From an uncultured Nitrososphaeria archaeon (lineage in GTDB: Archaea > Thermoproteota > Nitrososphaeria_A > Caldarchaeales > Wolframiiraptoraceae), in the NCBI GenBank assembly GCA_964451435.1, contig CAYVHW010000002.1, forward strand, positions 1 through 37,921: DNA of 37,921 nt, given 5' to 3'. Within the stretch, counting starts at the first letter, position 1; every line of letters starts with the position of its first letter. Under the pieces are notes generated by a model. The model did not search any database. It was not told where the DNA came from and saw nothing but the letters and a program-made list of their open reading frames with translations. The translations under genes were made by a program, and so were the position numbers. This document shows positions 15,317 to 17,027 of the stretch, in pieces.

Positions 15317-15619
15317 TTGATACTAGGGGCGGTGGAGTGGTTGAAGAAGGTTAGGGCTCACGTCATAATCTCGGGAAGGGTTCAAGGCGTATTCTATAGG
15401 GTTAATGCGAAGCGGATGGCGGATAAGATCGGGGTTAAGGGCTGGATAAGAAACCTGCCTGATGGAAGGGTTGAGGCCGTGTTTGAGGGAGATGAAGAAG
15501 CCGTTAAGAGGATGCTCTCATGGTGTTGGATTGGACCTGCCGGAGCGAGGGTCACGAACATAGATGTTGAGTGGGAGGAGTATCTCGGAGAGTATGATAG
15601 CTTCAGGGTTCTCTATTGA
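15317..15619 (+). CDS. acyP: Acylphosphatase
   Basis: VIISGRVQGVFYR...GVKGWIRNLPDGRVEAVFEG. The start codon is uncertain (TTG at 15317). Confidence 0.85.
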   Translation: MILGAVEWLKKVRAHVIISGRVQGVFYRVNAKRMADKIGVKGWIRNLPDGRVEAVFEGDEEAVKRMLSWCWIGPAGARVTNIDVEWEEYLGEYDSFRVLY

Positions 15620-17027
15620 GGCTTTCAGCCAGGACCCTCTTCCCACTCTCCGTCAAATGATACTTTCTAACCATCCTCCTACCGAATCCCCTTTCAAGAG
15701 GCTTTGATACTATCAATCCCATTCGGAGGAGTTCTGAGAGATGCTGATAGATCGTCGGAAGCTTGAACTCCAGTCCATAGGTTGTCTTGAGGCTCTTCCA
15801 CAGCTCATATCCATACATGCTCCTCTCAGATAATAGCTTGAGCATCTTGAGCTTGGTTCCAGAAACCCTGACATGCTTGGGGTAGCTTAGCTTAAACAGC
15901 TCCCTCATCGAGGCTGGATCCTTAAGCCCAGAGCCCGTTATCATGCAAACAACCCTCTCAGATCTATCGATCAAGCCATCATCCACGGCTATCTTCAAGG
16001 CAGCGATAGAGGCCGCCGCAGCCGGCTCCGCCAGAACTCCCTCGGTCTTCGCTAAGAGCTTTATCGATTTCAAGATCTCATCCTCCTTAACCATTATCGC
16101 TGAGCCGCCTGAGCCTCTGATGACCTTCAATACGATTGATCCGAGGATTGGATTTGGCTCCGATATGTCTGGAAAGATCATCTTATAGTCCTTCTTTGGT
16201 TCCACCTCATCCAAGCCCCTCTTGAAGGCCTCAACTATCGGAGCGCATTCAGATGCTTGAACCCCATAGAGTCTCGTAGAGTTCTCCTCGATCAATCCAA
16301 TAGACTCGGCTTCGCTCAAGGCCTTCCACGCGGCCGTGAGGTTGCTTCCAGTTCCCATGGTTATGAAGATTGCGTCTGGAGGATTCCAATCTAATTGCTC
16401 GAGGATCTCAAGAGTCGAGGTCTTGAGCCCATCCAAGAAGAATGGATTATATGGCTCGACGAGGTGACCATCTCCAAGCTGATCAGATCTCCTAGAGGAG
16501 TAAATGAGCTCAGCGTCATAGGCCAAGGCTTGGAGGATCTTCGCCTGCTCAGCTCCAGGCAAGACATAGACTCTGCACGGGATCCCTGCCTTGACCGCGT
16601 AGGCGGCGAGCGATGCTGCGAGGTTTCCTCTTGAGAAGCACTCTAAGCATCTCACCTTGGAGTGAAGGGCCATAGTAACCTCTATCGTTGAACCTCTATC
16701 TAGGAAGGATCCAGTCGGGTTCACGGTCTCATTCTTTAGATAGATGTTCCTTAATCCAAGCTCTCGGCCAAGCCTCTCAGCTCTTTGAAGATAGGTTCCA
16801 CCCTCACCCAAGCTCACGGGCTCTCCGATGGCTTTGGGCAGAAGTTCGAGATATCTCCAGACGCCGGGAGGTCTAGACCCTATAATCTTCTTGAGCTCGG
16901 TTCCCCCGATACCTAAGCCCTCGATCTCATGGATTAGGATTAGTGGGGAGCCGCATTCACATAGTCTCAGCTCGATGTCCGGCGGGTAAGTTCTTCCGCA
17001 TCGGGTGCATTTTAGCCAAGCTTTCAT
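15603..17027 (-). CDS. Threonine-synthase-like fold-type-II PLP-domain protein lacking the catalytic Lys, with an N-terminal Zn ribbon and a C-terminal PadR-like wHTH
   Basis: CTRCG...CECG ribbon. NPTGSFLDRG replaces the expected SFKDRG, and codon 16701-16703 reads CTA=Leu on the coding strand. GNLAASLAAY is also present. The C-terminus LKLLSERSMYGYELWKSL...PTIYQHLSELLRMGLIV...RKYHLTESGKRVL is PadR-like. Confidence 0.75.
   Translation of the reverse strand: MKAWLKCTRCGRTYPPDIELRLCECGSPLILIHEIEGLGIGGTELKKIIGSRPPGVWRYLELLPKAIGEPVSLGEGGTYLQRAERLGRELGLRNIYLKNETVNPTGSFLDRGSTIEVTMALHSKVRCLECFSRGNLAASLAAYAVKAGIPCRVYVLPGAEQAKILQALAYDAELIYSSRRSDQLGDGHLVEPYNPFFLDGLKTSTLEILEQLDWNPPDAIFITMGTGSNLTAAWKALSEAESIGLIEENSTRLYGVQASECAPIVEAFKRGLDEVEPKKDYKMIFPDISEPNPILGSIVLKVIRGSGGSAIMVKEDEILKSIKLLAKTEGVLAEPAAAASIAALKIAVDDGLIDRSERVVCMITGSGLKDPASMRELFKLSYPKHVRVSGTKLKMLKLLSERSMYGYELWKSLKTTYGLEFKLPTIYQHLSELLRMGLIVSKPLERGFGRRMVRKYHLTESGKRVLAESLNREP

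Follow-up and report, generated by a model that had tools for sequence, protein, structure and literature searches.

The window analyzed here is a 37,921-nucleotide stretch from an uncultured Nitrososphaeria archaeon (assembly GCA_964451435.1, contig CAYVHW010000002.1, positions 1 to 37,921). Its element of interest, called the fusion gene below, codes for a protein in which a threonine-synthase-like domain that would hold pyridoxal 5′-phosphate (PLP) is joined to a PadR-type winged helix. The gene is divergent from a gene for an S component of the energy-coupling factor (ECF) type, and a spacer of 52 bp (17028..17079) separates the two start codons. The open reading frame (ORF) of the S component opens at a GTG at 17005; its likely start is the ATG at 17080. 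On its other side the fusion gene converges with an acylphosphatase gene (15317-15619, plus strand), the 3′ ends overlapping by 17 nt (15603-15619), and the same convergent neighbor is found in another locus, L003. The features are collected in Table 1.

Table 1. Features of the fusion gene and its protein, of the shared promoter region, of the thiamine salvage locus in the window, and of PurM-superfamily genes at related loci
Feature	Position	Strand	Evidence or remarks
Fusion gene, 474 aa: zinc ribbon, threonine-synthase-like PLP domain, linker, PadR winged helix	15603..17027	-	ORF list, sequence
Zinc-ribbon-like N-terminal segment, residues 5-33 (C7, C10, C23, C25; C7xxC10...C23xC25)	16929..17015	-	Sequence
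PALP domain, fold type II, threonine-synthase-like, predicted non-catalytic, residues 71-365	15933..16817	-	Pfam PF00291, E 1.8e-57
Leu109 codon CTA, position of the Schiff-base Lys	16701..16703	-	Codon read; flanks TTC (Phe108) and GAT (Asp110)
Phe197 codon, position of the substrate-phosphate-binding Arg	16437..16439	-	Aligned to Arg of 2d1f
Flexible linker, residues 367-383	15879..15929	-	AlphaFold2 pLDDT <50
PadR winged helix-turn-helix, Pfam residues 395-468 (structural domain ~390-471)	15624..15845	-	PF03551
Perfect 12-bp palindrome CCTATATATAGG, candidate operator	17031..17042	.	-15..-4 from fusion ATG; -49..-38 from S-component ATG
TATA-like element CTTATATCT (+), containing GATATAAG on the - strand	17049..17057	.	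~23-31 nt from both divergent start codons
ECF-type S component gene (PF07155, HmpT/PdxU2-like), divergent, probable regulated target	17080..17793	+	Pfam E 3e-27
Thiamine salvage: ThiW S component	1720-2331	-	E 2.5e-38
183-aa ORF between ThiW and ThiD-ThiN	2377-2928	+	No Pfam match
Thiamine salvage: ThiD-ThiN fusion (HMP-P kinase and thiamine-phosphate synthase)	2954-4315	+	
PurM-superfamily genes, outside the window	L036:7026-8030 (+); L029:2566-3579 (-); L167:1985-3046 (-); also L168, L169, L171		

A threonine-synthase-like domain joined to a PadR winged helix

The fusion gene begins with ATG, ends with the stop codon 15603..15605 and is read in one unbroken frame without a frameshift. Scans of genomes and of metagenome contigs yielded 82 fusion genes and 84 threonine-synthase homologues lacking the PadR domain, and eight further look-ups of exact proteins brought the number of fusion loci to 90, which are designated here by L numbers. 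We ruled out a frameshift or a chimeric assembly that had joined two genes, as the architecture recurs in 240 cluster representatives and in about 90 independent loci. Among the 120 best homologues of the window protein, the PALP domain is present in all and PadR is recorded in all but one, and none has Lys at the critical column discussed below. They come from Nitrososphaerota/Aigarchaeota, Thorarchaeota, Bathyarchaeia, Thermoprotei, Methanomethylicia and Promethearchaeota, and their sources almost always name them threonine synthase.

The initial annotation had recognized a threonine-synthase-like protein by its motifs, all of which were located: NPTGSF-L-DRG (residues 103-112), GNLAASLAAY (134-143) and TMGTGSNL (223-230). 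Threonine synthases in the PDB match the enzyme domain at E 7.6e-49, with about 35% identity to the solved structures, and a Foldseek search of the PDB with the AlphaFold2 model returned the threonine synthases 2c2b, 2zsj and 2d1f as best matches. In the zinc-ribbon-like segment, C25 is invariant in the family alignment and C7 and C10 are at least 90% conserved. The PadR-less homologues from the same scans align to the window protein from about residue 5, showing that the N-terminal segment is shared.

The winged helix assigned to the C terminus by the initial annotation was recovered by independent means. The match to PF03551 (E 3.7e-11) scores 43.3 bits for a gathering cut-off of 27, and this part of the protein also matches the putative transcriptional regulator TA0346 (PDB 3elk) at E 4.7e-6. 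The AlphaFold2 model of the 474 residues has a mean predicted local distance difference test score (pLDDT) of 88.1 and is confident in the winged-helix part, where it shows helices at residues 390-401, 406-417 and 423-436, a wing at 439-458 and a C-terminal helix at 460-471. By Pfam, the DNA-binding domain is thus C-terminal and of the PadR type, not N-terminal and of the GntR type. To our knowledge, the PadR proteins described so far are small (approximately 110 to 180 residues) and sense ligands by a C-terminal or interdomain pocket of their own. The last 80 to 90 residues of the fusion protein resemble them in matching PF03551 and in their succession of three helices, one wing and a further helix, and its candidate operator is palindromic; in contrast to the usual PadR protein, it carries an enzyme-derived domain of 385 residues ahead of the winged helix.

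Catalytic residues lost, PLP contacts kept

In HMMER alignments to the threonine synthases 2d1f, 2zsj and 6cgq, Leu109 stands opposite the Lys of the SFKDRG motif, in agreement with the reading of this codon in the initial annotation. A displaced catalytic lysine was ruled out, as the 10 residues on either side of position 109 include no Lys. We extended the comparison to 240 close homologues, i.e., the 120 best matches and 120 Nitrososphaerales proteins, all cluster representatives and down to 38% identity. The column holds Ile in 120 of them, Leu in 58, Met in 43, Thr in 8, Val in 5, Phe in 3, and Ala and Glu in one each; Lys occurs in none. A substrate-binding position has changed as well. 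The column of the Arg that binds the substrate phosphate, which we take to be Arg160 of threonine synthase in Thermus numbering (contacting the phosphate of O-phosphohomoserine), is Phe197 in the window protein. Arg is found there in 28 of 31 PadR-less homologues, but in 0 of 54 fusion proteins and 0 of the 240 close homologues.

The residues that hold PLP have been retained. Asn135 is conserved in 236 and Gly225 in 239 of the 240 sequences, and Gly227, Thr364, Lys369, Asp110 and Arg111 are invariant. The invariant lysines of the enzyme-like domain, K98, K163, K202 and K369, are also conserved in true threonine synthases where this was checked. Since the PLP contacts are kept while catalytic and substrate-binding residues drift, selection appears to act on a pocket for the PLP ring and phosphate, and not on catalysis or substrate binding. 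With the zinc-ribbon threonine synthases (ThrC, PRK08197), the fusion protein thus shares the fold, the Cys-rich N-terminal segment, the PLP phosphate loop and two further PLP contacts, the Asn at O3′ and the Thr on the N1 side. It differs from them by the absence of the Schiff-base Lys and of the substrate-phosphate Arg, by the additional DNA-binding domain, by scores below the cut-offs and by its place in a separate clade. On this sequence evidence, the window protein is a predicted non-catalytic pseudoenzyme of threonine synthase.

Its close overall similarity to threonine synthases, the names given by the sources and the NCBIfam equivalog NF004170/PRK05638, which is named threonine synthase and spans the whole fusion architecture, would all fit a genuine threonine synthase with an extra C-terminal domain. 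We regard this as very improbable. The Schiff-base Lys, any displaced substitute for it and the substrate-phosphate Arg are all missing, and the window protein scores below the cut-off of every curated thrC model (TIGR00260, 159.2 versus 167.1; NF006050, 273.5 versus 303; NF004170, 271.9 versus 421). The Thermococcus sp. fusion protein that does pass NF004170 over its full length with 804 bits (L056:4992-6326, plus strand; also L067) has PadR, and Arg replaces its catalytic Lys. The curated name of NF004170 is probably wrong, to judge from these residues, and the error would carry over to genomes annotated with it. Moreover, in two Bathyarchaeota loci (L040:147-1466, minus strand; L043:158-1468, minus strand), a PadR-less homologue with both SFKDRGM and the substrate-phosphate Arg lies divergently beside the operon of the fusion gene and an S-component gene. 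The presence of a separate threonine synthase next to the fusion gene argues that the latter is not the housekeeping enzyme; the pair may go back to the duplication from which the fusion family arose. In the two Thermococcales loci L056 and L067, the S component is not adjacent, and two other genes lie downstream: a second PALP gene, and a gene whose product resembles ribose-5-phosphate isomerase in its N-terminal sequence, as judged by eye only.

The enzyme-like domain might alternatively serve the protein for dimerization or stability alone, without sensing anything, the whole being a PadR regulator of the adjacent membrane-protein gene. PadR-family genes are often found beside genes for membrane proteins, and threonine synthases are dimeric. 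A mere scaffold is nevertheless quite unlikely in view of the conservation pattern: in the 240 sequences, little or no variation is seen at Asn135, Thr364, the loop with Gly225 and Gly227 and the NPTGxF-DRG loop, while the catalytic and substrate residues drift, and this contrast points to selection on a ligand pocket.

A neighbor-joining tree of the enzyme-like domain, built without bootstrap support and to be taken as a guide only, places 80 fusion proteins in one clade, in which the only foreign sequence is an ORF truncated at the end of a contig. Two branches make up this clade. In that of the window protein, called the Lys-less clade below, the Lys column is occupied by a hydrophobic residue; its sister branch, from Bathyarchaeia, Asgard archaea and Thermococci, has Lys (14 proteins) or Arg (30 proteins). 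The substrate-phosphate Arg is lost in every branch. As the Lys- or Arg-bearing sister clades share the fusion, it would be older than, or independent of, the loss of the lysine. The fusion appears from the tree to have arisen once, with the lysine lost later and probably more than once.

Vitamin B6 genes and a promoter palindrome at the fusion loci

The S component is the most frequent partner of the fusion gene. Of the 82 scanned fusion genes, 57 have a PF07155 gene at a distance of at most 300 nt, versus none of the 84 PadR-less homologues; with four of the eight further look-ups, the pairing is found in 61 of 90 loci. The arrangement of the window recurs in an Aigarchaeota metagenome-assembled genome (MAG), a complete Thorarchaeota genome and a Nitrososphaeria MAG. 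The S gene is divergent in the Lys-less clade, co-directional and immediately downstream in Bathyarchaeia, and convergent in Asgard archaea, and this variation argues for functional coupling rather than inherited synteny. No EcfA or EcfT gene was seen in the window; in L024, the fusion gene stands divergently to a full S-A-A′-T operon. The complete Thorarchaeota genome has two PadR-type genes at its locus, since the gene directly downstream of the S component codes for another PadR-domain protein, of much greater length (278 residues; L002:6463-7299, minus strand).

A profile of 26 of these S components gave one match in the PDB, chain S of 4hzu (E 3.5e-26), which is HmpT/PdxU2 of Lactobacillus brevis. 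That protein was first named HmpT as a presumed carrier of hydroxymethylpyrimidine (HMP), and it turned out to carry pyridoxamine (PMC4860826). The B6 transporters within PF07155 are PdxU and PdxU2/HmpT (PMC9997740). Four of the six HmpT pocket residues, Glu41, Tyr120, Asn140 and Gln143, are identical in the S component (residue list from PMC4860826). The latter is longer than HmpT, at about 237 versus 166 residues, and approximately 65 residues between the two aligned blocks have no counterpart; the sequence suggests an insertion between transmembrane segments. An NCBIfam search for its substrate returned only weak, sub-threshold matches to TIGR04002, FolT-family and RibU models.

In Bathyarchaeia and Nitrososphaerales, a gene of the PurM superfamily (AIRS/AIRS_C, 310 to 350 residues) follows the S component in one operon. 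Of the 82 scanned fusion genes, 23 have such a gene no more than 3 kb away. Its product scored below every cut-off of the HypE, ThiL and SelD models; its similarity to ThiL amounts to 65 to 92 bits for a cut-off of 184, and its HypE score is higher. That it may be an unrecognized ATP-dependent enzyme of B6 salvage is speculation. In three Nitrososphaerales loci, a gene for a HAD-family hydrolase lies directly downstream of the fusion gene (L168:5477-6142, L169:5437-5880 and L171:5486-6157, all on the minus strand).

The second type of partner is the PLP synthase itself. In loci from Thermoplasmata (L014), Methanobacteriota (L016) and Nitrososphaerales (L028), the fusion gene is divergent from pdxS (SOR_SNZ, E ~1e-96 to 1e-100), which is followed by pdxT (SNO). 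Look-ups in Nitrososphaerales showed the same layout in L164 and L166, and in L165 pdxS, the next gene being truncated by the end of the contig, giving six linked loci out of 90 in these three lineages. The close relatives of the fusion protein in Nitrososphaerales are thus encoded either beside pdxS-pdxT or beside the S component and the PurM-superfamily gene (L167, L168, L169 and L171). A metagenome contig scan seeded with the pdxS-linked proteins recovered 30 more fusion loci and no new pdxS neighbor.

The TATA-like element in the spacer presumably acts as a promoter, judging by its sequence, and the palindrome next to it is a candidate operator. A search of the window for further members of a regulon found CCTATATATAGG at this one site only. 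The palindrome draws its weight from the conservation of its position across loci. In the stretch 28 to 70 nt ahead of the first Cys codon, a match to CCTATNNATAGG with at most one mismatch is present in 21 of the 32 Lys-less-clade loci that could be assessed, versus 1 of 43 loci of the Lys/Arg clades, and about half of all matches in 805 kb of sequence fall within these short promoter stretches. The layout is fixed across loci, ATATATAA-N6/7-palindrome, and common to S-linked and pdxS-linked ones. In L014 and L016, both linked to pdxS, the palindrome occurs twice at a spacing of 20 bp, and its cores ATGTAT, ATGCAT or ATACAT are not TATA-like, which argues that the conserved part is CCTAT..ATAGG rather than a TATA box. 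Nitrososphaerales loci, whether linked to the S component or to pdxS, carry the variant CCTATATAT[CT]GG.

A palindromic site suits a dimeric DNA-binding protein, and the usual site of an archaeal repressor lies between the TATA box and the transcription start. As the palindrome is situated between the TATA box and the start of the fusion gene, the usual place for a repressor, autorepression is the likely effect. In the window, where, seen from the divergent S gene, it is directly upstream of the shared TATA region, the palindrome must presumably also affect the S-gene promoter. Rfam and tRNA scans of the window found nothing, arguing that no riboswitch explains the locus.

The origin of the sensor domain raises the possibility of a regulator that responds to threonine, homoserine or O-phosphohomoserine, whether PLP is bound or not, and that controls the import of that compound. 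This would fit the threonine synthase genes beside the fusion-S operons of L040 and L043, and the permease-like membrane proteins encoded upstream in L170 and L041; furthermore, MocR regulators such as GabR sense an amino compound by way of PLP (PMC5320631). We nevertheless find it unlikely. None of the fusion clades has kept the substrate-phosphate Arg, the partner conserved among the loci is an ECF S component of the vitamin type and not an amino-acid transporter, other genes of the threonine or homoserine pathways do not recur nearby, and the pdxST linkage would be left without explanation. In addition, exchange of the aldimine with an amino acid would be very slow with the lysine missing, by general PLP enzymology. 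Of the ligands proposed in the initial annotation, i.e., PLP, an amino acid or a phospho-amino acid, PLP or another B6 vitamer is favored, and O-phosphohomoserine is disfavored by the loss of the phosphate-binding Arg.

Other genes of the window were recorded as well. The gene directly after the S component codes for a double-AAA ATPase of the CDC48/VCP type (17858-20032, plus strand), and a second one of the same length, 724 residues, lies 6 kb away on the opposite strand (9702-11876, minus); a neighborhood with CDC48 and DUF72 is also seen in L003. Glycine cleavage genes, for the T protein and both P-protein subunits, occupy 20895-24888 on the minus strand, 3 kb from the S gene. The P protein depends on PLP; the proximity is probably coincidental, because it was not seen in the other loci examined. 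A 271-residue ORF at 13032-13847 (plus strand) has no Pfam match.

A candidate archaeal regulator of vitamin B6

From the domain architecture, the residues lost and kept, the gene linkage and the conserved palindrome, we infer that the fusion protein binds DNA, what its ligand is and in which direction it regulates. We consider it probable that it is a B6-responsive, autoregulated transcription factor, analogous but not homologous to bacterial PdxR. The dead threonine-synthase domain, having kept the pocket for the PLP ring and phosphate and lost both the lysine for covalent attachment and the substrate-phosphate Arg, would bind a B6 vitamer reversibly, most likely PLP, and would not make threonine. 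The PadR winged helices of a dimer would bind the palindrome, and binding within the shared spacer would repress the fusion gene and also control the divergent uptake gene of the PdxU2/HmpT type; in other archaea the controlled genes would be those of PLP synthase, pdxS and pdxT. Occupancy of the sensor domain by B6 would alter DNA binding and so create a feedback loop on B6 supply. By analogy with PdxR and with the usual behavior of PadR proteins, it is probably the form without ligand that binds DNA, and PLP would probably weaken the binding.

Bacterial PdxR is encoded divergently from pdxST and binds the spacer between pdxR and pdxST, as a repressor of the former and an activator of the latter; PLP is its anti-activator, pdxU is in the regulon, and MocR regulators are reported absent from Archaea (PMC5320631). 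The fusion family resembles this system by a sensor with the fold of a PLP enzyme joined to a winged helix, by divergence from pdxS-pdxT and by association with a PdxU-type S component. PdxR also controls its own gene from a site in the shared spacer, and the fusion family has the conserved palindrome in its own promoter as a candidate for such a site. The two are not homologous. MocR proteins have an N-terminal GntR winged helix and an aminotransferase domain of fold type I that keeps the PLP lysine, whereas in the window protein the winged helix is C-terminal and of the PadR type and the threonine-synthase domain is of fold type II, the lysine being absent throughout its clade. The divergent layout is a working resemblance to MocR/PdxR, not membership. 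The initial annotation had suggested a non-catalytic sensor derived from an enzyme and comparable in principle to MocR/PdxR; the loss of Lys and Arg, the retention of the PLP residues, the pairing with B6 genes and the promoter palindrome all argue for this view.

Several points weigh against the B6 reading. The palindrome is AT-rich and TATA-like and is not significant within the window alone, as 81 of 100 shuffled sequences contain at least one match with at most one mismatch. A palindromic operator was also sought in the Lys/Arg sister clades, and none recurred. In loci with a long spacer, such as L167, the palindrome is in the regulator's own promoter, approximately 80 nt from the S gene, and direct control of that gene would be suggested there by adjacency only. 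The linkage to pdxS concerns a minority of loci, and about a quarter of all loci have neither partner; some of these are contig ends, and L170 has a transporter of the amino-acid-permease type as divergent partner, beside an aldo-keto reductase (genes at 1431-2357, plus strand, and 2390-3961, minus strand). With respect to the transporter, two of the six HmpT pocket residues differ in the S component (His84 to Lys and Gln87 to Glu), and PF07155 also includes carriers of the thiamine precursor HMP, so that the transporter alone is no proof of B6.

These last points bear on a variant of the proposal in which the regulator is the same but its ligand is HMP or HMP-phosphate, which resemble pyridoxamine or pyridoxine phosphate in shape. 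The S component would then import HMP, as the original name of 4hzu_S implied, and the weakly ThiL-like PurM-superfamily gene that follows the S gene in Bathyarchaeia and Nitrososphaerales would act like ThiL. A pocket devoid of the lysine would also suit a ligand without an aldehyde. Thiamine is an improbable theme for these loci, however, given that six of them pair the fusion gene with pdxS-pdxT under the same candidate operator, whereas a thiamine biosynthesis gene adjoins it in 0 of 90. The PurM-like protein stays under the ThiL cut-off and scores higher against HypE, 4hzu_S itself carried pyridoxamine, and thiamine salvage has a locus to itself elsewhere in the window, with ThiW as its S component and ThiD-ThiN.

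A B6 vitamin regulator of this kind would have parallels within the same domain of life. ThiR and RbkR are archaeal vitamin regulators in which the fold of a vitamin-pathway enzyme (the ThiN domain and riboflavin kinase, respectively) is joined to a winged helix and the genes controlled are those for making and taking up the vitamin in question; the fusion family follows the same design principle with other folds and for another vitamin. The combination of such a sensor with a winged helix is thus already known, from MocR/PdxR and from ThiR and RbkR, but both domains belong here to other families than those of MocR, and the sensor is a pseudoenzyme. In full-text literature searches, we found no description of an archaeal B6 counterpart to ThiR or RbkR, of an archaeal B6 regulator, of the means by which archaea regulate B6 synthesis or uptake, or of the architecture itself; most subscription journals were outside the reach of these searches, and a prior mention is possible. 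The initial annotation's view that the architecture is undescribed thus stands for the literature searched, but not for databases, where NF004170/PRK05638 covers it under the name threonine synthase. In a survey of bacterial and archaeal B6 metabolism published in 2023, the only regulators named are those of the PdxR type, and transporters and alternative kinases are listed as still to be found (PMC9997740).

We advance a broader proposal more tentatively, as one that may well hold but to which we would not yet commit: that this single-origin, archaea-wide family of pseudoenzyme-PadR proteins is the missing B6 regulator of Archaea, sensing PLP reversibly in a Lys-less pocket of fold type II and acting through the CCTATATATAGG operator either on pdxST or on a salvage module composed of the PdxU2-like S component and the PurM-superfamily enzyme, which is perhaps a new kind of B6 kinase. 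If true, the fold of a PLP enzyme would have been converted into a transcriptional sensor for a second time and independently, here with fold type II and with the covalent lysine discarded. The family provides a concrete candidate for an archaeal B6 regulator, for which operator, targets and ligand are all predicted, and it points to candidate genes for B6 salvage, i.e., the S component, the PurM-like enzyme and the HAD hydrolase. The probable and systematic misnaming of its members as threonine synthase, by the sources and by a curated equivalog model, can mislead metabolic reconstruction in Nitrososphaerota, Bathyarchaeia, Asgard archaea and Thermococcales.

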